From Salinispira sp. (GTDB lineage: Bacteria; Spirochaetota; Spirochaetia; DSM-27196; Salinispiraceae): a stretch of DNA of 64,000 bases. The notes beneath the pieces were generated by a model. That model did not search any database, was not told the DNA's origin, and was given only the letters and a program-made list of their open reading frames with translations. The position numbers were made by a program, and so were the translations under genes. Location of the stretch: contig OZ271918.1 in the NCBI GenBank assembly GCA_965602015.1, positions 3,296,001 to 3,360,000 on the forward strand, in the 5' to 3' direction. Shown one piece after another: positions 41,519 to 57,994 of this stretch. Every line of letters begins with the position of its first letter. The first letter of the stretch is position 1.

Positions 41519-42560
41519 CAGCGAGGGCATACTCATCGACCAGCTTCGTTTTTTCGTCTTTGGTAAGAAACGCCGCATTCAGAGCCGTAAGATTGGCTTG
41601 TACCAGGTCTTCCAGGCTGAGGTCAAAATATTTCACCGCTTTGACGTAGTCATCGCTGAGATCGGTATCCTGAATAGAGGGGTCATCGGAATTGAGGGTC
41701 ACCGGCACTCCCTGCCGGAACAGGCGTCCGAAGGGATGGTTTTCTTCTTCCTTCCAGGAGCCGGTTTGGTGATTTGAGGTGATGCATTGTTCGAGAACGA
41801 TGAAGTTTTCCTTGAGGTATTCCTGCAGTTCGGGGTCGTCTATTGTGCTGGTGCCGTGGCCGATTCGCCGGGCATAGAGCCGCTTTATTGCCGTCCAGAT
41901 CTGATCCGATTTGGTTACTTCTCCAGCATGAACCGTCGCCTTGTATTTTCTATCCTTCCTGATTCGAGCGAAAAACTTGTCAAAAAGATCCGGGGGATAG
42001 TTAAGTTCGTCACCCGCCAAATCGATGCCGACGATGTCCGGTTCATTGAGGGAGGTGATAATGTCGTAGAGCTCAAGCATCTCTTCCTGGGTCTGCTTGT
42101 TTCGGTTAAAGGTGATGAGGTATTTAATGCGGAATCCCGCATCCGCCGCAGCCTTGTTTGCCGTTTTGATAATAAGCCGGGTTATCTCCGCCCTGTCGAA
42201 GTTATTCTGCAGCGAAAAATGTTCGGGACTGAAGCGCAGTTCGATGTAGAACATGCCGTCGTCCTTCATGTTGTAGACCGAGTGGTAGGTTATGTTCTCG
42301 ACATCATCATGGCTTCTATACCAGTCGGTTCTAAACTTGCTGAGAAACAGCAGAAAGTCCGGGTCCTGATCTTTGGGGAACTGAATAGTCGTTTTAAACT
42401 CGTCAAAATCTGCTGGTATGTCTAATTTATTCTTTTTCGCTATTTCAAAGAGGGTTTTTGGATCAAAGGTTCCTTCCAGGTGCCGGTGAAGTTCGATTTT
42501 TGGAAAGGTCCGCATTACCTGGGGATCCTGCAGTTTATCATTCGCAATATCTTTTTTCAT
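41487..42560 (-). CDS. add: Adenosine deaminase
   Basis: ELHRHLEG, DLAGDE, VHAGE, RIGHG, NSDDP. Confidence 0.92.
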   Translation of the reverse strand: MKKDIANDKLQDPQVMRTFPKIELHRHLEGTFDPKTLFEIAKKNKLDIPADFDEFKTTIQFPKDQDPDFLLFLSKFRTDWYRSHDDVENITYHSVYNMKDDGMFYIELRFSPEHFSLQNNFDRAEITRLIIKTANKAAADAGFRIKYLITFNRNKQTQEEMLELYDIITSLNEPDIVGIDLAGDELNYPPDLFDKFFARIRKDRKYKATVHAGEVTKSDQIWTAIKRLYARRIGHGTSTIDDPELQEYLKENFIVLEQCITSNHQTGSWKEEENHPFGRLFRQGVPVTLNSDDPSIQDTDLSDDYVKAVKYFDLSLEDLVQANLTALNAAFLTKDEKTKLVDEYALAVKKFRSQTRL

Positions 42561-42743
42561 CTGAAAGCAACCTTTCGTACTACTCTAATGGTAAACCCCG
42601 GGAATTGCCAAATTTTCCGCCAGGGCCTGATGGATTGTAATGTCCAGAACATTTCAATTTTCGGCAGCATGAAGGCGGTAGTTTATTTTTTTATGGGATT
42701 TTCATGTGAAGCTGTCGCAGGAGTCAGGTTCCCCCGGCTTATC

Positions 42744-42890
42744 AGCCACATATCAGGGAGTTGTAGTCTACCACAAATCGCATTAATACTCACGGATTTG
42801 GTTTGGTGACCGGAGCAGTTTTGCAGAGGGGATTTCTGTGCTGAAGGTATGTTGAAAGAAAGAAATGAATGGGGCGCGAGGATTCGCGCC
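42744..42890 (+). repeat. ~147 bp island repeat, copy A
   Basis: AGCCACRTATCAGGGAGTT...TATGTTGAAAGAAAG..GGCGCGAGGATTCGCGCC shared with 47689-47836 and 50676-50822. Confidence 0.9.
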
Positions 42891-42936
42891 TTCTGTATAC
42901 TGGAAAATAGTATCATTATTTGATATCATTCTTATT

Positions 42937-43190
42937 TTGAATGCCAAGAACCGTAAAATTCTGAAGGCGATCTTCACTGACCCGTGAAATCGAATATTGC
43001 CTGGTCCGACATCGAATCTTTACTGCTTAATCTGAATGCAGGAAGGAAGGAGGGTTCTGGTTCCCGAGTCGCATTCACATTGAACGGTGTTGTCTTAGTC
43101 ATTCATAGACTGTATCCGAGAAAAGAAACTGATAAAGGGGCTGTTAAATCGGTTCGGAGATTTTTATCGAACTCAGGAGTAATGCCATGA
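42937..43190 (+). pseudogene. hicA: HicA-family toxin, frameshifted
   Basis: TTG 42937 reads MNAKNRKILKAIFTDP then TGA; remainder (VKSNIAWSDIE...GSGSRV) continues in a shifted frame from 42984. Confidence 0.8.
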
Positions 43191-43522
43191 AATATAAAGG
43201 GTATACCGGTGTGGTCGAATATGATGATGACGCTCATATTTTCCACGGAGAAGTTATTGGGCTAAAAGATGTAATCACTTTTCAGGGATCATCGATTGAA
43301 GAACTTGAGGCAGCGATGGCCGAATCAGTGGATTTTTATCTCGAAGTATGTCGTGATAAGGGAAAGGAACCTGAGAAGCCGTTCTCAGGGAGATTTGTCG
43401 TCAGGACTTCTCCCGACCTTCATAGCCGCGCCGCTACCGCTGCAGCAAAACTGGGCTTATCACTGAATAAATATGTTGAAAAAGCTATCGAGGATGAAAC
43501 CCGACAAGTATTGCCCATGTAA
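43187..43522 (+). CDS. hicB: HicB-family antitoxin
   Basis: MKYKGY, DVITFQG, KPFSGRFVVR, SLNKYV. Confidence 0.92.
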   Translation: MKYKGYTGVVEYDDDAHIFHGEVIGLKDVITFQGSSIEELEAAMAESVDFYLEVCRDKGKEPEKPFSGRFVVRTSPDLHSRAATAAAKLGLSLNKYVEKAIEDETRQVLPM

Positions 43523-43635
43523 TAACAACCACTTAACCTGTGAGCCGTATACTGGCGACTGGCGCGTGTCCTTGCCGGCGAAGCCGATGCAAGGACCGTG
43601 AAAATAGGCGAATCAGGTTGAAGTGCTTGTTATAT
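43520..43635 (-). mobile_element. attC: Integron attC recombination site
   Basis: Minus strand R'' ATATAAC-5-L'' CTTCAACC ... L' GGTTAAG-5-R' GTTATTA, with an extra base in L'' and an internal hairpin. Confidence 0.82.
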
Positions 43636-43684
43636 AGCAGTCGTGATAGGCTTCCGCAAATTTAGCTGCCAACACTGGTCCTGA

Positions 43685-44095
43685 CTAATCTGACACCCAA
43701 TTTTCCATCTTTAGATCCGGAATCCGTTCAAACTCTCGAAGATTATTTGAGACCAAAATCAGATCATGTGCCCTCGCCTGAGCTCCGATAAGCATATCCA
43801 TATTTCCTATAAGCTCACCTTTCCTGGAAAGCATTGCCCTGATATTTCCATATTCAAATGCAGCACTCGAATCAAAATCGACGATCGCAAAGGGTAATAA
43901 AAATTCAAAAAGGGCCTCCCGATTCCGCTCTCTAAATTCGATTGCAGATTTCGCAATTCCAAACTCCAATTCTGCGATCGTAATTGTGGATATTCCAATT
44001 GAGTCGATTCCGTGAGCTTCGATGCGCTCAATCAGGGATTGGAATTTTCGATTGATGAGATAGATACAGATATTCGTATCAAAGAGGTACTTCAT
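43685..44095 (-). CDS. vapC: VapC PIN-domain toxin
   Basis: YLFDTNICI, AELEFG, DMLIGAQA, SNNLREF. Confidence 0.95.
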   Translation of the reverse strand: MKYLFDTNICIYLINRKFQSLIERIEAHGIDSIGISTITIAELEFGIAKSAIEFRERNREALFEFLLPFAIVDFDSSAAFEYGNIRAMLSRKGELIGNMDMLIGAQARAHDLILVSNNLREFERIPDLKMENWVSD

Positions 44096-44098
44096 CTC

Positions 44099-44326
44099 TT
44101 ACAAATCTTCACGTGACTGAGGAAGATCATTTTCGTGAGCGAGTTCGAAATCAGGTGAAAACTTATCGAAGGATTGTTTAAAAAGATCCCAGACTTTATC
44201 TTTTGGAATGAGCATGACGATGTCATCGATCTTTTTGATAAATACGTCATCCCCAGAAAATCGATATTCCTTAGGAAGTCTGACTGCTTGGCTTCGCCCA
44301 TTTTCAAATAGTTTAGCTGTATCCAT
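44099..44326 (-). CDS. vapB: VapB (AbrB-type) antitoxin
   Basis: [20 protein letters not shown]. Confidence 0.95.
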
Positions 44327-44417
44327 TTCGTGCCCCTAGAAAATAATATATATTCAAGTATATATCTACCGTCATAATCAATCAATGATTTGAGATCGAT
44401 CACAAATCAGGAACAAG

Positions 44418-45767
44418 AATGGTGTCCAAATTAGTTCGCAATTTCATGTAGGAGCCAGCTTCCTCCAGCGGGTTAAGCGGCTATTTTCGGGATGAGATCT
44501 CGTTGCTCATCCAGTATTTCCTTTTTAATATAGGCCTTGCCGGCTGTCCAGTCTTCCGTGTATTCAATCAGGAAACAGGTCACCAATCTCAGGTAAGAAT
44601 CCTGAGATGGGAAAATCCCGACGACTTTCGACCGCCGACGGATCTCCCGGTTCAGTCTTTCCAGCATGTTTGTCGAAGCGACCTTCCGATGATCGAGCTT
44701 TGGAAATTCATAGAACTGGAGTGAGTCTTCAAGTCCGTTATCCAGGATTTCCACCGCCTCAGGGAATTGCGATTCCAGATCATCCATCACCTGTTTGGCA
44801 TATTCCCGTGCGGTACCGGCATCCGGTTGAAGCCAGATATGTTTGATACGGGCGGCAACATGCTCTTTGTGTTTGGCTCTCACTTTTGCCAACACGTTCC
44901 GCATGAAATGTACTTTGCAGCGTTGCCAGCTGGAACCAAGGAATTCTTTCTGGATAGCATTCTTCAATCCCAGATGCGCATCTGAGACCACAAGCCACAC
45001 GGACCGAAGGCCACGCTCCTTCAACCTCTGGATCAGGAACCGGTAATTGTCTTCATTTTCAGCATCCATGGGCTCTATTGCCAGGATTTCCCGTTCTCCA
45101 GCCCTGTTGAGGCCGCACACGACCATAACCGCATGATTGTAGACTCTCCCGTCATCCCGGATCTTTTCATACAGGGCGTCTATCCAGATTACTGGGTACT
45201 CCGCTTCAAGGGGGCGATTGCGAAATGTATCAACCTGTTCATCAAGACCTTTGTTGATTTCTGAAACCTGGCTTGCGGAAATATTCTCGATTCCCAGCTG
45301 TTTTGCCAGACGATCAATCTTCCGGGTTGAAACGCCGTTAATGAATGCTTCCTGGACAACCTGAAGAAGCGCCTGCTCAGACCGGCGCTTCTCGGTGACA
45401 AAGAAGGGGATATACCCTCCCTTTCGGAGCTTTGGAACCACCAGATACATGGTACCTAATCGGGTATCAAAACGGCGAACCCGTGTTCCGGAAAAGTGAG
45501 TAGCCCGGTTGTGGGAGTGCTGACCTTTGGGGGCACCGACCTTGAATTCGACTTCGATTTTCATAAGCTGCTCTGTTGTCCATTTGAGCATCTCAAACAA
45601 GGGATCGGATTCACCGGTGAATTGGGATAGCAGATTCTTGAAATCTGCGGTAGAGTTTTTTGGGGCCATGATTACTTACTCCTTCTGGTTGTGTATCGCT
45701 ACTTAACCTTCGGAGAGAATTGTGGCTCCTTTTACTTTTCTAAATTGCGAACATTATTGGACGTGAT
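44418..45767 (-). mobile_element. IS256-family insertion sequence (ends approximate)
   Basis: Imperfect terminal IRs GTCCAA-N4-GTTCGCAATTT at about 44424 and 45763; no clear target duplication seen. Confidence 0.85.
44473..45669 (-). CDS. IS256-family (Mutator) transposase
   Basis: GVSTRK, WIDALYEKIR, VSDAHLGL, WQRCKVHFMRN, STNMLERLNREIRRR. Confidence 0.95.
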   Translation of the reverse strand: MAPKNSTADFKNLLSQFTGESDPLFEMLKWTTEQLMKIEVEFKVGAPKGQHSHNRATHFSGTRVRRFDTRLGTMYLVVPKLRKGGYIPFFVTEKRRSEQALLQVVQEAFINGVSTRKIDRLAKQLGIENISASQVSEINKGLDEQVDTFRNRPLEAEYPVIWIDALYEKIRDDGRVYNHAVMVVCGLNRAGEREILAIEPMDAENEDNYRFLIQRLKERGLRSVWLVVSDAHLGLKNAIQKEFLGSSWQRCKVHFMRNVLAKVRAKHKEHVAARIKHIWLQPDAGTAREYAKQVMDDLESQFPEAVEILDNGLEDSLQFYEFPKLDHRKVASTNMLERLNREIRRRSKVVGIFPSQDSYLRLVTCFLIEYTEDWTAGKAYIKKEILDEQRDLIPKIAA

Positions 45768-45833
45768 CTGATTTTCAGCTACTCCTTTTTTCTGTTGCCG
45801 AAGAAATAGTAATGATGAACAACTTGAACAATA

Positions 45834-46076
45834 CTATATCCGTATCTCCTTTCCAATTGATAGAATGGTGATAAGTATTAGGAGGATGTAACCAATTGCG
45901 ACTCCATAGAATCTATAATCTATTTTAGATTTTTTTTTGATTTTGCTTATGAAATACGGTATCACAACGAAAGTCCCTAGTAGAAAGGGTACTAATATCA
46001 CGGGAAGACCCATGTTCTCAAATAACACAAATATTGGATCTAATATCCGCCGAAATAAATCTACTTTGGTATTCAA
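45834..46076 (-). CDS. Putative immunity protein of Rhs module 1 (small, two TM helices)
   Basis: Low GC, AGGAG RBS, 8 bp after the Rhs stop. Confidence 0.7.
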   Translation of the reverse strand: MNTKVDLFRRILDPIFVLFENMGLPVILVPFLLGTFVVIPYFISKIKKKSKIDYRFYGVAIGYILLILITILSIGKEIRI

Positions 46077-46084
46077 ATATACTC

Positions 46085-47644
46085 CTAATTATCAGGTAGA
46101 GTTTCACCAACAGTAAAGACAGAAACCCCAATGGAAGCCTCGGCAATTAGTACAGCTCTTGCACTATTTGTAGCAATAAATCGACCATTCGCCGAATTTA
46201 TAAATCTCTGAGCGCCTTGGTTAAATGCAGGTGCAGGGAGAATAAACCCAAGTACACCAGAAAAAGCTGATAGACCAGCACTTACATAATCACCCTCCAC
46301 GACATAGGCAACGCTTGCAAGCAAATCTAGTCCTGCAGATATTCCAAAAAGTATCGGTGCGGCGGCTGGTAAAGAAAAGACTGCAACCATCCCACCGGCA
46401 GTAAATGCTAAAGAAGCATTCGAAACAATGTCAGCAAATTCACCTACACCATCCAGACTATCGCTAGAAGGATCGTTATTCTGACTGTCAATCAAACCCG
46501 ATAGATCATATCCTGCAGCTTCATAATCCTGGATTCCTCGGAGCAGCTCTTTTGCTAAATCCTCTAACTCTTGCTTGTAGGCAAGAAATTCATCCAGCGT
46601 CATGCCGCTGGTATCTTGTTGTGAGAGTTTAACGAGTTTTTCTGACTGTTGGGTTATTGATTCCTGGGCAGAAATACCAGTGGAGACATGATTGATCTGT
46701 TCGGTTATTTCCTCATAGCTGGCAACCTCTGTTGTTGTTTCTTCTACGTTTCCATAATTCTCATTTTCAGGGGTTTTTGTATGGTAATCCCCGGCATCGA
46801 AGATCGTTGTACCCCAGCTCACTTCATTCAAACCGGTTGGATCGAAGTATTTGAGGGGATTGCTCGCTGCATACCGATACCAGTTCGAACCGAACCGTGC
46901 AGGATCCTCGCTTATAAACCTACCCGTCCCCGGGTCATACCACCGAGTATTGAAATAATACAGCCCGGTATCTTCATCCAGGTCCTTTCCGGTGTACATG
47001 AGGTTTTCTGTGTCAGCCATGGGTCCTAATTCTGATACCGAGTCGCCGAAGGGGGTGGTTTCTGCTGAGAAGACTTCGTTGCCGTCTTCGTCTGTCATCA
47101 GCACGGTGCTTCCCAGGTGGTCTGTGCCGTAGAAGTAGGTCTTTTCCGTGTTGGTGCTGTGGTCTACCACCCGTTTGGCAATGTGGCGGAGGTTTCTGAA
47201 TATGTAGTATTCGCTTTTCTCTTCTGTGTGCCGTTCGATTCTGTTGCCCTTTTGGTCGTAGACGTAATGGGTGATCTGGCCGTGTCGGTTTTTCTCCCAT
47301 ATCCTCAGGTTATTCACATCATAGCCGTATTCTTTTATTACCTCCAGATTGCCCTCTTCATCGAGCTCTTCGACGGTCTCAAGGCGGTTTAACAGGTCCC
47401 AGCTGTAGTGGCGGTAGGTTCCTGTCCGGTTGATGGTGATTTCACTGCCGGTGATTGTGGCGCTGTCTCCCCGTTCTGTGAGGTTGCCGTTCTCATCATA
47501 GGCATAGTAGTAGGTTCCGTCGTATTGGAGCAGGTCTGAGTTGGGGTAGTACTGGTATTGCTCACTCTGCATGCTGCCGGCGAGGATGCTTCGCATGGAG
47601 CGGTTGCCGTCGGGGGTGTAGTTGTAGAACTCGTTGCGGCCCAT
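46085..47644 (-). CDS. Orphan Rhs repeat-associated core with hydrophobic C-terminal toxin tip (module 1)
   Basis: YD repeats, TDHLGS, YTGKDLDEDTGLYYF..RWYDP..GRFISEDP, NPLKYFDPTG; far shorter than a full Rhs. Confidence 0.9.
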   Translation of the reverse strand: MGRNEFYNYTPDGNRSMRSILAGSMQSEQYQYYPNSDLLQYDGTYYYAYDENGNLTERGDSATITGSEITINRTGTYRHYSWDLLNRLETVEELDEEGNLEVIKEYGYDVNNLRIWEKNRHGQITHYVYDQKGNRIERHTEEKSEYYIFRNLRHIAKRVVDHSTNTEKTYFYGTDHLGSTVLMTDEDGNEVFSAETTPFGDSVSELGPMADTENLMYTGKDLDEDTGLYYFNTRWYDPGTGRFISEDPARFGSNWYRYAASNPLKYFDPTGLNEVSWGTTIFDAGDYHTKTPENENYGNVEETTTEVASYEEITEQINHVSTGISAQESITQQSEKLVKLSQQDTSGMTLDEFLAYKQELEDLAKELLRGIQDYEAAGYDLSGLIDSQNNDPSSDSLDGVGEFADIVSNASLAFTAGGMVAVFSLPAAAPILFGISAGLDLLASVAYVVEGDYVSAGLSAFSGVLGFILPAPAFNQGAQRFINSANGRFIATNSARAVLIAEASIGVSVFTVGETLPDN

Positions 47645-47986
47645 AAGTTCGGCGGTGAGAATTTTCTAAAGTCGGGGGGATGAGAGAAAGCCACGTATCA
47701 GGGAGTTGGGGTCTACCACGTATCAGCACCAATAATCACGGATTTGGTTTGGTGACCGGGGCGGTTTTGCAAAAGGGATTTTTCTGCTGACGATATGTTG
47801 AAAGAAAGGAATGAATGGGGCGCGAGGATTCGCGCCATTTTCACAAAGCACTTGGGCTGTGCTGTTTCAGGCTTCCTCCGTTTTTCTCAAGTGTATCTCT
47901 CCGCTCCTCGCGGTCAAGCCGCGCTTCGCTCAGGGGCGTTGACCACTCGTCGCTTCGAGACTGCCTCCTGAAAAAAGGAGGTCAGC

Positions 47987-48358
47987 ATGGCTGAGTATCT
48001 TTTCAAGGAACTGTCCTACACGGTGGTGGGAGCGTTGTATTCGGTGCACAACATCCTGGGTCCCGGGCTTTTGGAAAGCGCGTACGAGGGTGCGCTGGTT
48101 ATTGAGTGTCGCAGGCTGAATCTGGCGGTGGAACAGCAGAAGGTGTATCCGGTGTACTACAAAGGCGAGCTTGCCGGGGCGTACATTGCAGACCTGGTAA
48201 TTGAAGGAAAGCTCATCCTCGAACTAAAAAGTGTTTCCAAGCTCACTCCAGTTATGGAAGCCCAGCTCATAAATTACCTCAGGCTTTCGGGCATCCGCAT
48301 AGGGTACCTGGTAAACTTCAACGGCAGCAGGGTGGAGTTTAAGCGTTTTGTTGTGTGA
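47987..48358 (+). CDS. GxxExxY protein (PD-(D/E)XK nuclease superfamily), copy 1
   Basis: GPGLLESAY, ADLVIEGKLILELK, AQLINYL, GYLVNF; AGGAGG RBS. Confidence 0.92.
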   Translation: MAEYLFKELSYTVVGALYSVHNILGPGLLESAYEGALVIECRRLNLAVEQQKVYPVYYKGELAGAYIADLVIEGKLILELKSVSKLTPVMEAQLINYLRLSGIRIGYLVNFNGSRVEFKRFVV

Positions 48359-48493
48359 AGTTTTTTCTCTTCTGCAGGCTGCTGCAAGCATCAGCGGTCT
48401 GCAGAAGAGTTCTTGCTCAGCGGGAGCAAGATGCTCTTCGATAGGTCCGTCACTGACTGACGTATGTCAAAGAACTTGTTTGTCGGCTCAACC

Positions 48494-48562
48494 CCCATAA
48501 GAAGGATACTTGGAGCTGACGCCGGGATTGGATCCGGCGCAGCTCAAGTCTGGTCTTATGGG
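48494..48562 (+). repeat. attC-like bulged hairpin with non-canonical core, copy 1
   Basis: CCCATAAGA-AGGAT-ACTT(G)GAGCTG(A)CGCCGG-loop-CCGGCGCAGCTCAAGT-CTGG-TCTTATGGG. Confidence 0.75.
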
Positions 48563-48598
48563 TTTGTAGTACCCTGTCTTGTATGGCAAAATTGATCA

Positions 48599-49102
48599 TC
48601 ACATTGAAGACCAATCTATTTCGTAAATTTCAATTATTTTTGTTTTGTTTGAATATACCAGATTATAGGGATCAGATGAGGTCAAATCATTGCAATCATG
48701 TTCAATAACTCTCACAATGAACCTATACTCCTCAACCAAGGACGGTTGAATCTCCAATTCAACACCGACTACTGAATCGGTTTCGCGCAGTGTTTCGAGG
48801 ATTAAGTTCCCTTTCCCATCAAAAAAAGTCTGGGAATCATACTTGAGGAGTACATGAAAATCACGATATTCGGAATTTCTCGAAAAAAGTATCGCTTTTT
48901 CAATTACAGAGTTGCTCCCATCACAGAACGAGGCAGCAATTAAATATTGGATATTCTCGATAACAATAGTCGTATCCAATATGCTGAATTCAGTTGAAGA
49001 GAAAAAATCTTCGACTTCCGGGTTTATGTATTCTCCATCACCACATAGATGCGCTAAAAAAATTAACATATAAATTAATAAAAATGTATTTAATTTCTTC
49101 AT
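48599..49102 (-). CDS. Putative exported immunity protein of Rhs module 2
   Basis: Signal-peptide-like N-terminus MKKLNTFLLIYMLIFLA; low GC; directly after the toxin. Confidence 0.72.
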   Translation of the reverse strand: MKKLNTFLLIYMLIFLAHLCGDGEYINPEVEDFFSSTEFSILDTTIVIENIQYLIAASFCDGSNSVIEKAILFSRNSEYRDFHVLLKYDSQTFFDGKGNLILETLRETDSVVGVELEIQPSLVEEYRFIVRVIEHDCNDLTSSDPYNLVYSNKTKIIEIYEIDWSSM

Positions 49103-49110
49103 TTCATTTC

Positions 49111-50631
49111 CTACTCAAATAATATGTATCGCCAGTTTACTTGGCGGTTCTGGACATTGTGAACGGGTCTGAACGATCCTCGTATGATAATTGTACCGGC
49201 ATTAGACGGCGTATCATTGGTCCGTCCTCCCTGTGGATGTACCATCAGGCCATTTCCCAATTTTATTGTTACATGGTCGTAAACACCGTCCGGATCAGAT
49301 AGATTTCCCCAATCGTAATAATTCAGTGTACCTCTCGATCCATCACCCGCAACAGTTAAATTAGGATCGGTTGCTTGCCCATTAGCATTGCGTGTTCTGA
49401 GGAGTATTCCAGAAGCTTGTTCAATTACAGCCTCAGCCGTACCAGAGCAGTCTAATCCCCCCTTGTCATTATCTGGTTTGCCTCCCCAAATATACGGAGT
49501 GCCAACATATTTTTCGGCTTCATCCGCTAATCTGTCATTCAGTATTAGATTAACAAGCGGCTCTGACTGGTTATAATCTTCAACCAAAATATTGCGAATC
49601 AGATCATCTTCTGCAGACTGAATTTGTGAGTCAATTTCTTGAATCCATTCTTCATCATTGGTAATTGACTGGATTTGATCTCGTTCTGCATACAATTCTG
49701 AGATTCCGGTTTTTTCCTCTTCGATCATCGTGTACCGGATATTGGACAATACAGACTCTGGCATCCCTAAGTCACGTAGATTTTCTAGTTCAGTTTCATG
49801 TTCCTGGGAAATTAATCCGGACGGGTCTACATACCTCAACGGATTGTTTGCAACATAAACATACCACGCCCGGCCGTCGCGAGCAGGATCCTCGCTTATA
49901 AACCTCCCCACCGTTGGGTCATACCAGCGCGCATTGAAATAATACAGCCCGGTATCTTCATCCAGGTCCTTTCCGGTGTACATGAGGTTTTCTGTGTCAG
50001 CCATGGGTCCTAATTCTGATACCGAGTCGCCGAAGGGGGTGGTTTCTGCTGAGAAGACTTCGTTGCCGTCTTCGTCTGTCATCAGCACGGTGCTTCCCAG
50101 GTGGTCTGTGCCGTAGAAGTAGGTCTTTTCCGTGTTGGTGCTGTGGTCTACCACCCGTTTGGCGATGTGGCGGAGGTTTCTGAAGATGTAGTATTCGCTT
50201 TGCTCGTCGGTGTGCCGTTCGATTCTGTTGCCCTTTTGGTTATAGACGTAATGGGTGATTTGGCCGTGTCGGTTTTTCTCCCATATCCTCAGGTTATTCA
50301 CATCATAGCCGTATTCTTTTATTACTTCCAGATTGCCTTCTTCATCGAGCTCTTCGACGGTCTCAAGGCGGTTTAACAGGTCCCAGCTGTAGTGGCGGTA
50401 GGTTCCTGTCCGGTTGATGGTGATTTCACTGTCGGTGATTGTGGCGCTGTCTCCCCGTTCGGTGAGGTTTCCGTTCTCATCATAGGCATAGTAGTAGGTT
50501 CCGTCGTATTGGAGCAGGTCTGAGTTGGGGTAGTACTGGTATTGTTCGCTGACCGGGGGGCTGCCGGCGATGATGCTTCGCATGGAGCGGTTGCCGTAGG
50601 GGGTGTAGTTGTAGAACTCGTTGCGGCCCAA
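49111..50631 (-). CDS. Orphan Rhs core with NlpC/P60 peptidoglycan-hydrolase tip (module 2)
   Basis: Rhs core ending NPLRYVDPSG; YVGTPYIWGG...GLDCSG...DHV...MVH. Confidence 0.9.
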   Translation of the reverse strand: MGRNEFYNYTPYGNRSMRSIIAGSPPVSEQYQYYPNSDLLQYDGTYYYAYDENGNLTERGDSATITDSEITINRTGTYRHYSWDLLNRLETVEELDEEGNLEVIKEYGYDVNNLRIWEKNRHGQITHYVYNQKGNRIERHTDEQSEYYIFRNLRHIAKRVVDHSTNTEKTYFYGTDHLGSTVLMTDEDGNEVFSAETTPFGDSVSELGPMADTENLMYTGKDLDEDTGLYYFNARWYDPTVGRFISEDPARDGRAWYVYVANNPLRYVDPSGLISQEHETELENLRDLGMPESVLSNIRYTMIEEEKTGISELYAERDQIQSITNDEEWIQEIDSQIQSAEDDLIRNILVEDYNQSEPLVNLILNDRLADEAEKYVGTPYIWGGKPDNDKGGLDCSGTAEAVIEQASGILLRTRNANGQATDPNLTVAGDGSRGTLNYYDWGNLSDPDGVYDHVTIKLGNGLMVHPQGGRTNDTPSNAGTIIIRGSFRPVHNVQNRQVNWRYILFE

Positions 50632-50992
50632 AAGCTCGGCGGTGAGAAATTTTTAAAGCCGTGGGGATGGGAGGAAGCCACGTATCAGGGAGTTTTGGTC
50701 TACCACCTATGGTACAAATCCTCACGGATTGGGTTTGGGGAGCGGGCCGGTTCTGTAAAAGGGATTTCTCTGCTGATGGTATGTTGAAAGAAAGCAATGA
50801 ATCGGGCGCGAGGATTCGCGCCTTCTTCCCTATGCCTTGGGCTGTGCTGTCTGGCTTCCCCCGTTTCTCTCAAGTGTATCTCTCCGCTCCTCGCGGTCAA
50901 GGCAGCCTGGTTGTTTTCTCAATTTATTGGCAGGTCTTCCCACCTTGACCACTCGTCGCTTCGAGACTGCCTCCTGAAAAAAGGAGGTCAGC

Positions 50993-51364
50993 ATGGCTGA
51001 GTATCTTTTCAAGGAACTGTCCTACACGGTGGTGGGAGCGTTGTATTCGGTGCACAACATCCTGGGTCCCGGGCTTTTGGAAAGCGCGTACGAGGGTGCA
51101 CTGGTTATTGAGTGTCGCAGGCTGAATCTGGCGGTGGAACAGCAGAAGGTGTATCCGGTGTACTACAAAGGCGAGCTTGCCGGGGCGTACATTGCAGACC
51201 TGGTGGTCGAGGGCAAGGTCATTGTTGAATTAAAAAGCGTTTCGAAACTTACCCCGGTCATGGAAGCCCAGCTCATAAATTACCTCAGGCTTTCGGGCAT
51301 CCGCATAGGGTACCTGGTAAACTTCAACGGTAGCCGGGTGGAGTTTAAGCGTTTTGTAGTGTGA
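50993..51364 (+). CDS. GxxExxY protein, copy 2
   Basis: Near-identical to 47987-48358. Confidence 0.92.
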   Translation: MAEYLFKELSYTVVGALYSVHNILGPGLLESAYEGALVIECRRLNLAVEQQKVYPVYYKGELAGAYIADLVVEGKVIVELKSVSKLTPVMEAQLINYLRLSGIRIGYLVNFNGSRVEFKRFVV

Positions 51365-51490
51365 AGTTTTTTCTCTTCTGCAGGCTGCTGCAAGCATCAG
51401 CGGTCTGCAGAAGAGTTCTTGCTATCTGTCCGCATCATATGGAGTAAAAACATTGACAATCCGTCGCTTATATGCGACATTAATTCGATA

Positions 51491-51823
51491 GTGAGTATTG
51501 AATATGAAGTGATAATTTATTCGGACGAAAGTGGTAAAGAGCCATTTTCTAAATTTATCTCATCTATAACAACTCCGTTTCGCGCGCGGATTTTTTCTCG
51601 TCTTGACCGCGTCTCTCGAGGTAATTTGGGCGATGTAAAAATGCTTGGAGCGAATTTTGGCGAAATGAGATTCCATTTCGGTCCAGGGTTTCGAGTGTAT
51701 TTTGGAATCCATGAAAGGACACTCATTGTCCTACTACATGGTGGTACAAAACATCGTCAGAATAAGGATATTGAAAAAGCCAGAGTGTTTTGGCAGGACT
51801 ATTTAGAAAGGATGGTAAAATGA
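51491..51823 (+). CDS. RelE/HigB-like addiction module toxin
   Basis: GKEPF, GNLGDVK, EMRFHFGPGFRVYF, LLHGGTK..Q.KDI; promoter TTGACA 51453 with GTCGC-N6-GCGAC dyad. Confidence 0.9.
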   Translation: MSIEYEVIIYSDESGKEPFSKFISSITTPFRARIFSRLDRVSRGNLGDVKMLGANFGEMRFHFGPGFRVYFGIHERTLIVLLHGGTKHRQNKDIEKARVFWQDYLERMVK

Positions 51824-52116
51824 AAAATTATAGAAAATTGGTTCAAGAATATGTCAAAGATCCTAACGAAGCATACGAATACCTAAAGGCATCACTTGAA
51901 GATTATGAAACAGATGGGGATCTCGATGCATTCCTTCTCGCTATACGAACAGTTGCAGATGCGCAGGGCGGGATGACAAAACTTTCAGAAGTTACCCATC
52001 TTAATCGACAACATCTATACCGTTCGCTTGCTCGAAATGGGAACCCAACGATAAAAACCCTTGATTCGATACTGCATGCCCTCGGGCTAAAACTGACAGT
52101 AACAAAGGCTTCCTGA
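51820..52116 (+). CDS. Addiction module antitoxin (HigA-like HTH)
   Basis: AIRTVADAQGGMTKLS, LYRSL..NGNPT; ATGA overlap with the toxin. Confidence 0.9.
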   Translation: MKNYRKLVQEYVKDPNEAYEYLKASLEDYETDGDLDAFLLAIRTVADAQGGMTKLSEVTHLNRQHLYRSLARNGNPTIKTLDSILHALGLKLTVTKAS

Positions 52117-52201
52117 ATTTCAATTGGGATTGCCGAAGGTAAGCTCTTTGACTGAATGGTCACTTACTTACGTTTTTCAAAGAAGGCTTCGCCGGCTTTC
52201 C

Positions 52202-52272
52202 CCCCATAAGAAAGATACTTGGAGCTGACGCCGGGTTTGGATCCGGCGCAGCTCAAGTTGGGTCTTATGGGG
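52202..52272 (+). repeat. attC-like bulged hairpin with non-canonical core, copy 2
   Basis: Same stems as 48494-48562; four differences, all at unpaired positions. Confidence 0.75.
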
Positions 52273-52348
52273 TGTTTATCTTGCGCTGAAACAAGAATTC
52301 TTTTGAACAGAATAGAATCTTCAACATCACTCCACTCATTTGACCATA

Positions 52349-52534
52349 TCATTGAAGTAGCGTAAGGATAAATTCAATTGTACCAGCACCGATAAACATG
52401 ATTCCGCCAAAAATAAATAGTTGCCTGCGCTTACGCTTTACGAAACTTGCATCTCTGTCTTGGCTATTAACAAAAAACAGCGATAAAACTATTGATGAGA
52501 TACCTATGAAAATGTATACGAATCCTTCAAACAT
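52349..52534 (-). CDS. Putative immunity protein of Rhs module 3 (61 aa, two TM helices)
   Basis: TAAGGAGG RBS; two hydrophobic helices separated by KRKRR. Confidence 0.7.
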   Translation of the reverse strand: MFEGFVYIFIGISSIVLSLFFVNSQDRDASFVKRKRRQLFIFGGIMFIGAGTIEFILTLLQ

Positions 52535-52543
52535 ACGACCTCC

Positions 52544-53905
52544 TTATTGAGTTATTTCTCCTACCCCTAATTCATACATGTCACATATAAACCAAGCAAA
52601 ATCTTCATTTTGTGTTATGGCAAGCACAGTCGGAAATACAATATTTTCTGGTATTGATTGTTCTGTTCCCATAAGCCCTTCTATAAACCTTTCCGTAATT
52701 TAATGTCAGATCAGCAATACCGGTTAGTATTATTGGTATTCCAACAAAATCTCCAGGACCAGGAATTGGTGAATCTAGTGCAGCAAAGCCTAATCCGACA
52801 CTAATCTGACCGAAGCCTCTGAACATTCCGCCTATTCCTTCAAGGGTCCTTACTAAATCAATCTGCCAAGTTTGAGAAACGCTACTGTGAGCACCTGCTG
52901 TTGATTCTGTTGCTTCACTCATGTATCCAGCAGCTTCATAATCCTGGATCCCTTGGAGCAGCTCCCTTGCTAAATCCTCTAACTCTTGCTGGTAAGCAAG
53001 AAATTCATCCAAGGTCATGCCGCTGGTATCTTGTTGTGAGAGTTTAACGAGCTTTTCTGACTGTTGGGTTATTGATTCCTGGGCAGAAATACCAGTGGAG
53101 ACATGATTGATCTGTTCGGTTATTTCCTCATAGCTGGCAACCTCTGTTGTTGTTTCTTCTACGTTTCCATAATTCTCATTTTCAGGGGTATCTGTGTGAT
53201 AATCCCCGGCATCGAATATGCTCGTGCCCCAGCTCACTTCATTCAAACCGGTCGGATCGAAGTATTTGAGGGGATTGCTCGCTGCATACCGGTACCAGTT
53301 CGATCCGAACCTCGCCGGATCCTCGCTTATAAACCTCCCGGTCCCCGGGTCATACCACCGAGCATTGAAATAGTACAACCCGGTATCTTCATCCAGGTCC
53401 TTGCCGGTGTACATGAGGTTTTCTGTGTCGGTCATGGGTCCTGATTCGGAGACCGAGTCGCCGAAGGGGGTGGTTTCTCCGGAGAAGACTTCGTTGCCAA
53501 AGCTGTCTGTCATCAGGACGGTGCTTCCCAGGTGGTCTGTGCCGTAGAAGTAGATCTGGGCTACATTGGTTTGCTTGTCCACTACCCGTTTGGCGATGTG
53601 GCGGAGATTTCTGAAGATGTAGTATTCGCTTCTTTGGTCTGTGTGCCGTTCGATTCTGTTGCCCTTTTGGTCGTAGACGTAATGGGTGATTTGGCCATGT
53701 CGGTTTTTCTCCCATATCCTCAGGTTATTCACATCATAGCCGTATTCTTTTATCACGCCCAGATTGCCCTCTTCATCGAGGTCTTCGACGTTTTCCAGGC
53801 GGTTTAACAGGTCCCAGCTGTAGTGGCGGTAGGTTCCTGTCCGGTTGATGGTGATTTTAGTGCCGGTGATTGTGGCGCTGTCTCCCCGTTTGATGAGGTT
53901 TCCCT
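52544..53905 (-). pseudogene. Orphan Rhs module 3, 5'-truncated with a frameshifted tip
   Basis: Rhs homology starts at about 53905 (GNLIKRGDS); ORF 52605-53756; alternative frame from about 52690 runs to TAA 52544. Confidence 0.78.
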
Positions 53906-53914
53906 CGGAGGTGT

Positions 53915-54763
53915 TTAGCGGTCCATTGGAAACTCTTCACAGTGAACGCATTCGTAGTTTTTGTCCTGGGGGTTTTGGATCATAACCTGGCCGCAGCGAG
54001 GGCAGAGGGGTTCGGGTTCGGCTGTGAGGTTGTGGTTCACTGTGATCCGGCCGTCGAAGACGAAGCAGCGGCCATTCCAGCTACTTTTTTCCTTTGGAAT
54101 GGTCTCGAGGTATTTGAGTATTCCCCCGTGAAGGTGGTAGACGTTTTCTATTCCCAGGTTTTTCACGTAGGCGGTGGCTTTTTCGCAGCGGATTCCGCCG
54201 GTGCAGAACATGGCGACTTTCTTTGGCTTGGTTTCCTCTATCATGTTCTTTGCGGCTTCGGGGAACTGTCTGAAATTTAGTGTTCGCGGGTCAACCGCGC
54301 GGTCGAAGCTTCCCAGGCGGTACTCGTAGGCATTTCTCGTGTCGATGACCAATACTTCAGGATCGGATATGAGTTCATCCCATTGTTCGGCCTCCACGTA
54401 GGTGCCTGAATTTGCCGCCGCATCGATTCCCTCGACGCCCATGGTGACGATTTCCTTCTTAATCCGAATTTTCAGCTTCCTGAAGGGTTTGCGGTTCAGA
54501 TTTGCCGAGGAGTACTTTACCTCCAGATCATGAAATCCGTCCCTGCTGCGGAGGGCGGCGATAAATGAGTCTATATTCTCCCTGCTGCCTGCAATGGTGG
54601 AATTTATTCCTTCGCCGGCGAGCAGAATGATCCCGATGAGGTTTAGATCATCTCCGAGGCGTTGAAGTTCGGCTTTTAGCTGTTCCGGGTTTGTGATTGG
54701 CGTGAATTTATAATATGTGGCGAAGGCGTATTGGACGCGCTTATTGCCGATAGTTTTTGTCAT
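53915..54763 (-). CDS. trhO: Rhodanese-domain tRNA U34 hydroxylase (TrhO/YceA)
   Basis: EGINSTI, KIRIKKEIVTMG, DTRNAYE, FCTGGIRCEKA, GGILKYLE, CFVFDGR. Confidence 0.9.
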   Translation of the reverse strand: MTKTIGNKRVQYAFATYYKFTPITNPEQLKAELQRLGDDLNLIGIILLAGEGINSTIAGSRENIDSFIAALRSRDGFHDLEVKYSSANLNRKPFRKLKIRIKKEIVTMGVEGIDAAANSGTYVEAEQWDELISDPEVLVIDTRNAYEYRLGSFDRAVDPRTLNFRQFPEAAKNMIEETKPKKVAMFCTGGIRCEKATAYVKNLGIENVYHLHGGILKYLETIPKEKSSWNGRCFVFDGRITVNHNLTAEPEPLCPRCGQVMIQNPQDKNYECVHCEEFPMDR

Positions 54764-57368: not shown

Positions 57369-57384
57369 TAGGCCTCGCTAAACT

Positions 57385-57472
57385 GGAGAGGTGTCCGAGT
57401 GGTTTAAGGAGGCGGTCTTGAAAACCGTTGTACGGTAGCCCCGTACCGTGGGTTCGAATCCCACTCTCTCCG
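57385..57472 (+). tRNA. tRNA-Ser(TGA)
   Basis: Anticodon arm GCGGT-CTTGAAA-ACCGT, long variable arm, GGTTCGAATCC. Confidence 0.95.
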
Positions 57473-57538
57473 TTTGCGCAATGTAATAAAACAGTATATA
57501 AATGAGTGTGCGCGGCCGGTATTACCGGCGCATATTCT

Positions 57539-57626
<88 letters not shown>

Positions 57627-57631
57627 TTTTT

Positions 57632-57705
57632 GATCCCGTAGCTCAGCTGGATAGAGCATCAGTTTGCGGAACTGAGGGTCGGTGGTTCGAGTCCACTCGG
57701 GATCG
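57632..57705 (+). tRNA. tRNA-Arg(GCG)
   Basis: TCAGT-TTGCGGA-ACTGA; acceptor GATCCCG/CGGGATC. Confidence 0.93.
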
Positions 57706-57777
57706 TAGGGCTGTTCGGCGCTTTGCCGCGCCGCCGCCTTAATGCAGTACCCCGGTCCCGCCGGGTCGTGTTTTTCT

Positions 57778-57865
57778 GGAGAGGTGACCGAGTGGTTGAA
57801 GGTGCACGCCTGGAACGCGTGTGTGCCCTATCCGGGTACCGAGGGTTCGAATCCCTCTCTCTCCG
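57778..57865 (+). tRNA. tRNA-Ser(GGA)
   Basis: CACGC-CTGGAAC-GCGTG, long variable arm. Confidence 0.95.
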
Positions 57866-57869
57866 TTCG

Positions 57870-57994
57870 CCCCTTTAGTGTTGAAAGTCAGGCACTGTGC
57901 AATGTGCCGTTACCCAACCCCGTCAGGCCCGGAAGGGAGCAGCGGTAAGTAATCGGTGTGTGTGCCGCAGTTCGCTTGACCGGAGCTAAAGGGG
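57870..57994 (+). ncRNA. ffs: Signal recognition particle (4.5S) RNA
   Basis: Domain IV TCAGGCCCGGAAGGGAGCAGC in a long hairpin closed by CCCTTTAG/CTAAAGGG; upstream of dnaX. Confidence 0.92.

Follow-up and report, generated by a model that had tools for sequence, protein, structure and literature searches.

A 64,000-nt stretch of the Salinispira sp. genome (the window; GCA_965602015.1, contig OZ271918.1, positions 3,296,001-3,360,000 of the forward strand) was analyzed, where orphan Rhs modules, each with a fragment of the Rhs core, a variable toxin tip, and a probable immunity gene, were found to alternate with GxxExxY genes and bulged hairpins. Judged by its sequence and fold, the hairpin belongs to the attC type of integron sites, but its crossover base is changed. 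Such sites would provide the integron integrase (IntI) with a separate channel for toxin cassettes, acting together with homologous recombination in the Rhs core, and a probability of about 0.55 was assigned to this reading. Genomes are denoted by handles (G000 is the host genome, a single contig, C1).

The two hairpins in the window (attC-type sites 1 and 2 in Table 1), described as 69-bp bulged structures in a first-pass annotation of the same DNA, folded with z scores of about -6.9 to -7.9, and none of 200 shuffled sequences folded as well. The attC features used for comparison were the R and L boxes, a pair of unpaired bases separated by 6 bp, and a T as the last of these on the bottom strand (PMC5027507). 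In the hairpin, the R and L boxes are paired, and the unpaired bases, C and T on the bottom strand, flank a 6-bp GAGCTG stem, with T in the last position as in attC. Its length of 67-69 bp lies within the attC range of 57-141 bp. The L stem was 93.4% paired over 33 aligned sites, with 41 two-sided changes, where the L box is partly fixed by the search pattern. The same L box was found in canonical AAC/GTT attC beside IntI in three genomes (G407, G507, and G487), as well as in canonical-looking metagenome sites. The anatomy and the L box shared with the hosts' own attC bear out the earlier suggestion of a recombination-type site, putatively an active one. The triplet differs from the AAC/GTT of attC, being AAG/CTT in all eight copies of the host genome. 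Spacers in these copies were 7 and 6 nt (six copies) or 7 and 5 nt (two copies), compared with the usual 5-6 nt, and those of the CTT sites in G518, G717, and G702 were 5-6 and 5 nt. Because of the changed triplet and the 7-nt spacer, the hairpin was not filed as a plain attC, though it is built like one.

The end of the hairpin is the boundary of variable DNA in 8/8 copies. Units 1 and 2 of the window share 95.3% identity in the Rhs core, 82.1% in the leader, 94.4% in GxxExxY, and 94.2% in the hairpin, while identity in the 300 bp beyond it is 51.7%. The stop of similarity first seen between these two units was recovered across all eight copies, where the number of agreeing copies at each column was 5-8 of the 8 ahead of the hairpin but mostly 3-5 of the 8 past CTTRTGGG. 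The immunity genes are very different from one another, and their ends lie from 8 bp inside the site to ~150 bp away.

The eight copies were found with E values of at most 7e-25 (the next match had an E value of 0.16), two in the window, four at C1:1.922-1.938 Mb, and two at C1:3.788-3.797 Mb. These make up three strain-specific arrays of orphan Rhs-tip/immunity modules. All seven core-bearing modules scanned were above the TIGR03696 cut-off and their tips differed. A family match was obtained for tip 2 only (NlpC/P60), and the pairs are predicted to be toxins and immunity proteins. No full-length Rhs was found in the single-contig genome. One module, at C1:1925699-1926319, carries an element like insertion sequence (IS) IS66 as an interruption and has a longer Rhs 5' part, which resembles a domain of the G217 Rhs.

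The crossover base divided the sites of the host genome completely: CTT was found in 8/8 sites of the Rhs arrays and GTT in 28/28 intact canonical sites, the latter from 31 matches to the canonical attC of the window. Nearly all of the 28 belong to two integron-type arrays. The array at C1:1.716-1.742 Mb adjoins an intact IntI at C1:1742.7-1743.97 kb (379.9 bits, with a cut-off of 265). A second cluster, at C1:3.44-3.456 Mb, holds at least 12 canonical attC with no adjacent intI and resembles a group of clustered attC sites that have no integron integrase (CALIN). Two canonical attC (C1:1736235 and C1:3450288) are interrupted at an identical position by one and the same foreign sequence, which is the way in which group IIC-attC introns insert. 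No tyrosine recombinase is encoded in the window, as the first-pass annotation had noted, and the recombinase that it had envisaged elsewhere in the genome has a candidate in IntI. This gene lies ~1.6 Mb from the window and 0.18-2.0 Mb from the three arrays, which lack the adjacent intI and attI of a complete integron. Besides IntI, four other tyrosine recombinases were found in the genome, none of them near the arrays.

Beyond the host, such sites were observed directly after Rhs immunity genes, so that 17 genomes from six spirochaete families are represented in total (duplicate handles counted once). The cores were mostly CTT or ATT, and the partner base of changed cores was co-changed in most relatives. 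With three loci in the host and 16 other genomes, a single tandem duplication does not account for the units. In support of the proposed channel, IntI was present in 16 of the 17 site-bearing genomes compared with 65 of 201 for the class as a whole, although these families often have it in any case. The L-box pattern matched 12 of 401 genomes of the class and 31 metagenome loci, and a pattern specific to the host genome returned 0 loci in a first metagenome scan. In G518, a further CTT site was recovered through the core pattern, after an Rhs core and an immunity gene. Because searching by L box is biased, loci were next picked by Rhs similarity alone. ATT sites follow immunity genes in G005, G312, and a further contig of G408, and the L boxes of G005 and G312 are of other kinds than the one searched for.

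A survey of 60 regions in 39 genomes (653 kb, with 113 testable cores) was chosen by TIGR03696 from a 161-genome search. Ten sites in seven genomes were located 0.9-1.6 kb past an Rhs core at the stop of an immunity gene: six ATT (two identical), two CTT, and two GTT. About 0.5 false matches are expected in the survey, given one match (CTT) in 150 kb of control DNA. The other six of the 16 matches fell outside this distance and included four GTT/TTT sites at 1.9-3.2 kb, one ATT site at 2.1 kb, and one GTT site upstream. In G409, G518, and G487, a site follows the immunity gene of a full-length rhs.

Several loci yielded no site. When seven family relatives were searched with the unit 1 DNA, the sole match was a 41-bp piece of Rhs in G007. 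Among 400 genomes of the phylum, G217 has the closest Rhs (46% identity); its two Rhs modules have neither GxxExxY nor a detected site, and none was detected in G404 or G051. Later detectors found no site near the intI of G005 or G217. About 20 Rhs cores were counted within 75 kb of G563 (C2:135-210 kb, loci L262-L265), of which only two were followed by a detected ATT site, and three tandem paralogous immunity-like genes past a long Rhs gene in G005 (C1:3.328-3.331 Mb, L249) had no detected site.

The core pair was Watson-Crick in 31 of the 33 aligned sites (13 CTT, 13 ATT, and 5 GTT, with two mismatched), compared with a shuffle mean of 12.1, where the rows are related and no probability is derivable. 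An Rhs core lay within 3.5 kb of 26 of the 29 CTT/ATT sites and of none of the 17 GTT sites with ordinary R boxes, many of which have short flanks. The tallies of Rhs linkage omit 11 rows without a core call, one TTT site (G509, no Rhs), two weak folds, and two duplicates. No clear case of an Rhs-linked TTT site was found. The detected sites of integron arrays in relatives were GTT throughout (16/16 in G518, 2/2 in G717, and 3/3 in G487), and the structural scan that covered these arrays also gave two likely false ATT matches. Both kinds meet in G460, with paralogous GTT and CTT sites in tandem, and in G502, with an ATT site inside a GTT-bounded cassette. In G518, an integron array (C1:3.603-3.610 Mb, L255) has many attC sites at a regular 399-bp spacing, which suggests tandem near-identical small cassettes.

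The natural variants CTT and ATT coincide with the two efficient laboratory variants. IntI1 requires both partners to have the same first base in their triplets, whichever base it is (PMC2811028). Relative to the wild type, its rates are 0.97 for CTT x CTT, 1.0 for ATT x ATT, and 0.044 for TTT x TTT, while mismatched partners recombine at 1.5e-4 to 3.4e-3, i.e., ~300- to 7,000-fold lower (PMC2811028, Table 4). GTT was kept in all integrons characterised at the time, and its conservation was ascribed to the need for cassette exchange (PMC2811028).

The proposed mechanism would start with a switch of the crossover base from G to C (in the host) or to A (in many relatives), the partner base being changed to keep the pair. 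Sites of this kind mark the 3' end of Rhs-tip/immunity modules, and IntI would excise and reinsert the modules between sites with the same core. The circles would enter a full-length rhs through the Rhs core, and the new immunity gene would then be followed by an intact site. GxxExxY genes and toxin-antitoxin (TA) pairs are carried along in the constant part, where the TA pairs probably stabilise the arrays. As the host has no full-length rhs, its arrays would serve as a store of immunity genes and tips. The wider proposal for free-living spirochaetes is more tentative and was given somewhat less than an even chance. It holds that one integrase serves two insulated channels, GTT for ordinary cassettes and CTT/ATT for Rhs toxin-tip/immunity cassettes, with excised circles feeding tips into rhs.

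A number of observations weigh against an active channel. In the sites themselves, the first unpaired base is C where attC usually has G, and the 7-nt spacer exceeds the usual length. The switch of the base is not universal, because five of the six GTT sites of the f92 (G408) type are Rhs-linked. The specificity data concern the class 1 IntI and attC x attI, rather than the host integrase or attC x attC. No site was detected for 103 of the 113 survey cores, by a detector that finds about half of the canonical sites (17 and 14 of ~30 in the host) and was tuned after such sites had been seen; an earlier structural detector had missed all canonical host sites. The orientation of the site relative to rhs varies among genomes. 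In G536, which has a GTT site, no IntI was found; in G408 the gene looks split, and in G439 it contains a stop. In the host, one and the same Rhs codon, residue 53, forms the chromosome junction of all three arrays (window position 53903, C1:1922866, and C1:3788419), and their ends are this codon and a leader rather than an attC-type site, which the model does not account for.

In canonical control cassettes, the bases after a site complement the next R'' in 18 of 18 adjacent cases. In the host modules, a 6-nt match to the R'' of the next site was seen in four of five, but R'' is identical in all eight sites, so the rule does not discriminate there. It fails in G407, G408, and G507, where unbroken runs are 1-3 nt. 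Self-complementarity over at least 4 nt was found in 25 of 47 Rhs-type sites versus 5 of 28 canonical ones, which fits the site of a circle and also sites that never recombine. Among the modules compared, no tip or immunity gene recurred in another order. Four public contig sets, from one sample, that bridge 48521-49915 and 51394-53043 showed no excision joint, where contigs drop rare variants; in a contig joint of 48562 to 53284, the sequence between the two sides is unknown and the joint fits another array.

The failures of the junction rule, the lack of a shuffled module, and the ambiguous self-complementarity are the reasons that confidence in the active channel was held at the level given above and that some weight was left for a view of the sites as disarmed relics. 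According to that view, which was judged unlikely but worth taking seriously, a cassette-derived attC at an rhs immunity gene lost its G and thereby shielded the locus from IntI. Hairpin-templated repair or weak selection then brought the pair back, and the site is now a passive passenger of homologous recombination that copies it between the Rhs core at one end and the block of hairpin, trailer, and GxxExxY at the other. Two long homology blocks do flank every variable part, the self-complementary sites and the three relatives that break the junction rule are in line with it, and the standing model explains orphan modules by recombination between conserved sequences (PMC3150448). However, across the six families the unpaired bases and the L box were kept, whereas covariation was seen in the core pair and the first L pair, and templated repair should have erased the bulges as well. 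Moreover, the very different immunity genes end at such varied distances from the site that a joining step beyond homology seems to be needed. The first-pass annotation, which had set the arrays apart from simple homologous recombination, claimed too much in this respect: the data are compatible with homologous recombination by itself as well as with its combination with site-specific recombination.

That annotation had also named GxxExxY as a possible builder of the arrays, by nicking of the folded hairpin. The gene precedes seven of the eight host sites, as well as sites in G407, G408, G409, G487, and G507. Its product matches TIGR04256 with a cut-off of 35 bits (Table 1) and has the GxxExxY and D..ExK motifs, with G27, E30, Y33, D69, and K81 invariant in 32 sequences. 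The structure model (predicted local distance difference test score 95.2) resembles Cas4, MGME1, and lambda exonuclease (best E 9e-5, TM score 0.56), and the protein may be an active nuclease. This PD-(D/E)XK fold is that of a nuclease rather than a recombinase, and the gene occurs independently of Rhs, which that annotation had listed among the findings that would count against its proposal. Rhs is near five of 42 homologue loci, and in only three does the hairpin precede an immunity-Rhs module in inverted orientation. The sites of G518, G717, and G702 had no GxxExxY beside them as far as was found, and just one of the ten Rhs-picked survey sites adjoins it. Among the seven copies in the host arrays one is IS-split, one of the six hairpin units outside the window has lost the gene, and a distant broken copy is present elsewhere in the genome. 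Nicking by GxxExxY was accordingly regarded as very improbable, and the gene is a passenger. It also travels with an upstream palindrome of its own in the 3' part of the leader (GTCAAG..TTGAC, at 47872-47981 and 50855-50987), whose two arms are both located upstream of GxxExxY and whose outer arm holds its ribosome-binding site. Similar palindromes (GTCAAG..variable loop..CTTGAC) precede many spirochaete GxxExxY genes (L062-L094), with a central loop that differs even among the host copies and with no Rfam match. A loose pattern count for this palindrome matched junk and was not used.

The strong fold of the hairpin and its constant position just past the last immunity gene could also suit an element acting on RNA, as a terminator or stability element that closes the rhs-immunity operon, or the target of one of the four other tyrosine recombinases. 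Such a role was considered improbable. The hairpin is not terminator-like on either strand, unlike the stem that follows GxxExxY (Table 1), an Rfam search of 42000-54500 gave no match at E values up to 1, both orientations relative to rhs occur, and the bulge pattern is that of attC.

Within the window, gene calls, profile matches, and the unit identities confirmed the proposed order of the repeat, from the immunity gene, tip, and Rhs core on the minus strand to the leader, GxxExxY, trailer, and hairpin on the plus strand. The minus strand carries three Rhs core fragments, all with different tips and each followed by a small low-GC gene. Modules 1 and 2 begin at the identical Rhs codon, as had been reported (a stop followed by KILTAELMGRNEF and KFLTAELLGRNEF, respectively). 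Two full units had been described, and their order held, while unit 2 is not a plain copy, as a RelE/HI1420 pair is inserted between its GxxExxY gene and hairpin. The island is larger than the 45834-53905 first annotated, extending over ~42744-53903, and its further contents are a third copy of the leader, the HicAB pair, a canonical attC, the VapBC pair, and IS256 (Table 1). No hairpin follows immunity gene 1, which adjoins the IS256 element. The flanking genes, trhO and add, are adjacent in three of five relatives (G005, G006, and G007), and by this comparison the island is an insertion at trhO/add.

Table 1. Annotated features of the island (positions in the window).
Feature	Position	Strand	Evidence or remark
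Third, partial leader copy; left island edge	42744..42894	+	84-88% identity to other leaders
HicA-HicB toxin-antitoxin pair, convergent on canonical attC	42984..43522	+	PF07927, PF05534
Canonical attC (AAC/GTT) of host integron type; top strand '-'	43520..43635	-	Matches sites in IntI-linked array
VapB-VapC pair, cassette ending at canonical attC	43685..44326	-	Pfam PIN, MazE_antitoxin
IS256-family element	44418..45774	-	PF00872; several copies at 99.8% identity
Probable immunity gene 1, 80 aa, hydrophobic, GC 0.33	45834..46076	-	Position after tip 1; putative role
Orphan Rhs module 1, core fragment and variable tip	46085..47644	-	TIGR03696, 73.6 bits
Leader 1	47688..47986	+	One of 9 leader copies in genome
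GxxExxY gene 1, PD-(D/E)XK fold, D69/E79/K81 present	47987..48358	+	TIGR04256, 134 bits; alignment; model and fold search
18-bp perfect stem after GxxExxY, terminator-like	48367..48409	+	Second copy at 51373-51415
attC-type site 1, AAG/CTT core, top strand '+'	48494..48562	+	2 unpaired bases 6 bp apart; spacers 7 and 6
Probable immunity gene 2, 167 aa, GC 0.34	48599..49102	-	Stop 37 bp from site 1; putative role
Orphan Rhs module 2, NlpC/P60 tip (probable cell-wall hydrolase)	49111..50631	-	PF00877, E 1.3e-8; TIGR03696
Leader 2, other central loop in palindrome	50675..50992	+	Sequence comparison
GxxExxY gene 2	50993..51364	+	PF13366
RelE/ParE toxin and HI1420 antitoxin, inserted in trailer	51419..52116	+	TIGR02683, TIGR02684 above cut-off
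attC-type site 2, AAG/CTT core	52203..52271	+	Fold and genome search
Probable immunity gene 3, 61 aa	52349..52534	-	Putative role
Orphan Rhs module 3, cut at core residue 53 at chromosome junction	52605..53903	-	Tip looks frameshifted near 3' end

The left end of the island (42744-44326), with its leader copy, HicAB, canonical attC, and VapBC, forms a small cassette piece of the GTT type, whose top strand is opposite to that of the CTT sites. Two of the three residue-53 junctions are followed by an identical run of five bases, and the left island edge (~42728-42740) has a similar 13-mer; the junction is possibly a second recombination site. Neither the attG consensus (GWT, CRGM at 6-9) nor the ends of IS91 gave a clean fit to this array end. 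A further candidate, CCCATAAG at the start of module 1, was dropped as a recombined site, as it aligns with Rhs codons of a longer allele and differs in module 2. Three tRNA-like repeats of ~95 bp each were observed at 57383-57870.

The ingredients of the arrays are known from CALIN-like attC clusters and from orphan Rhs arrays, and their combination appears to be new as far as was found. A literature search, with subscription journals mostly outside its reach and supplements excluded, returned no report linking attC to Rhs modules or describing natural CTT/ATT sites. With integron attC, CALIN, and single attC sites lacking integron integrases (SALIN), the host sites share the R and L boxes, two unpaired bases, a variable terminal stem, the length range, the occurrence in clusters far from intI, TA passengers, and an L box common to the hosts' own attC (PMC4889954; 10.1101/2022.09.11.507474). 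The host layout of two, four, and two sites without a neighboring intI fits CALIN, but the triplet is AAG/CTT (in relatives also AAT/ATT) instead of AAC/GTT; one spacer is 7 nt, the cargo consists of an Rhs core fragment, tip, and immunity gene inverted relative to the site in the host, and the array ends carry no attC-attG junction. Engineered first-base variants of attC and attI have the same CTT/ATT with a co-changed partner and recombine at the wild-type rate when matched, but they were laboratory-made for IntI1 (PMC2811028), whereas the spirochaete sites would be natural cases.

Orphan rhs-CT/rhsI and cdiA-CT/cdiI arrays likewise combine a truncated core, a variable tip, and a low-GC immunity gene in tandem, with a shared 5' truncation and homology for the exchange of tips, while their description, in the part available, mentions neither an attC-type site nor an integrase and uses 'integron' 0 times (PMC3150448). 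The host arrays have the truncated core, variable tip, and small downstream gene of such arrays without lying downstream of a full-length rhs, as those of G409, G518, and G487 do. Effector displacement in Vibrio cholerae is grouped here with the orphan arrays. The rAID-1 clusters of Bacteroidales share low-GC immunity arrays, repeated intergenic sequences, and a link to a tyrosine recombinase; they have an adjacent XerD-like recombinase and co-directional immunity genes, as opposed to the attC homologues, remote IntI, and included toxin tips of the host, and may be seen as a loose analogue only (10.1101/471110). The GxxExxY proteins of the host (TIGR04256, PF13366) are full-length with PD-(D/E)XK residues and are dispensable for the link between site and Rhs.

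If the proposed channel is real, the attC sites of these spirochaetes would amount to a natural orthogonal code, and polymorphic toxins would have a site-specific route of exchange. Natural CTT/ATT sites tied to one class of cargo would show that first-base specificity can partition cassette traffic, and tools trained on AAC/GTT may miss such sites. They also offer a direct test of how unrelated tips and immunity genes come to be joined into rhs loci, which models based on homology alone leave open.

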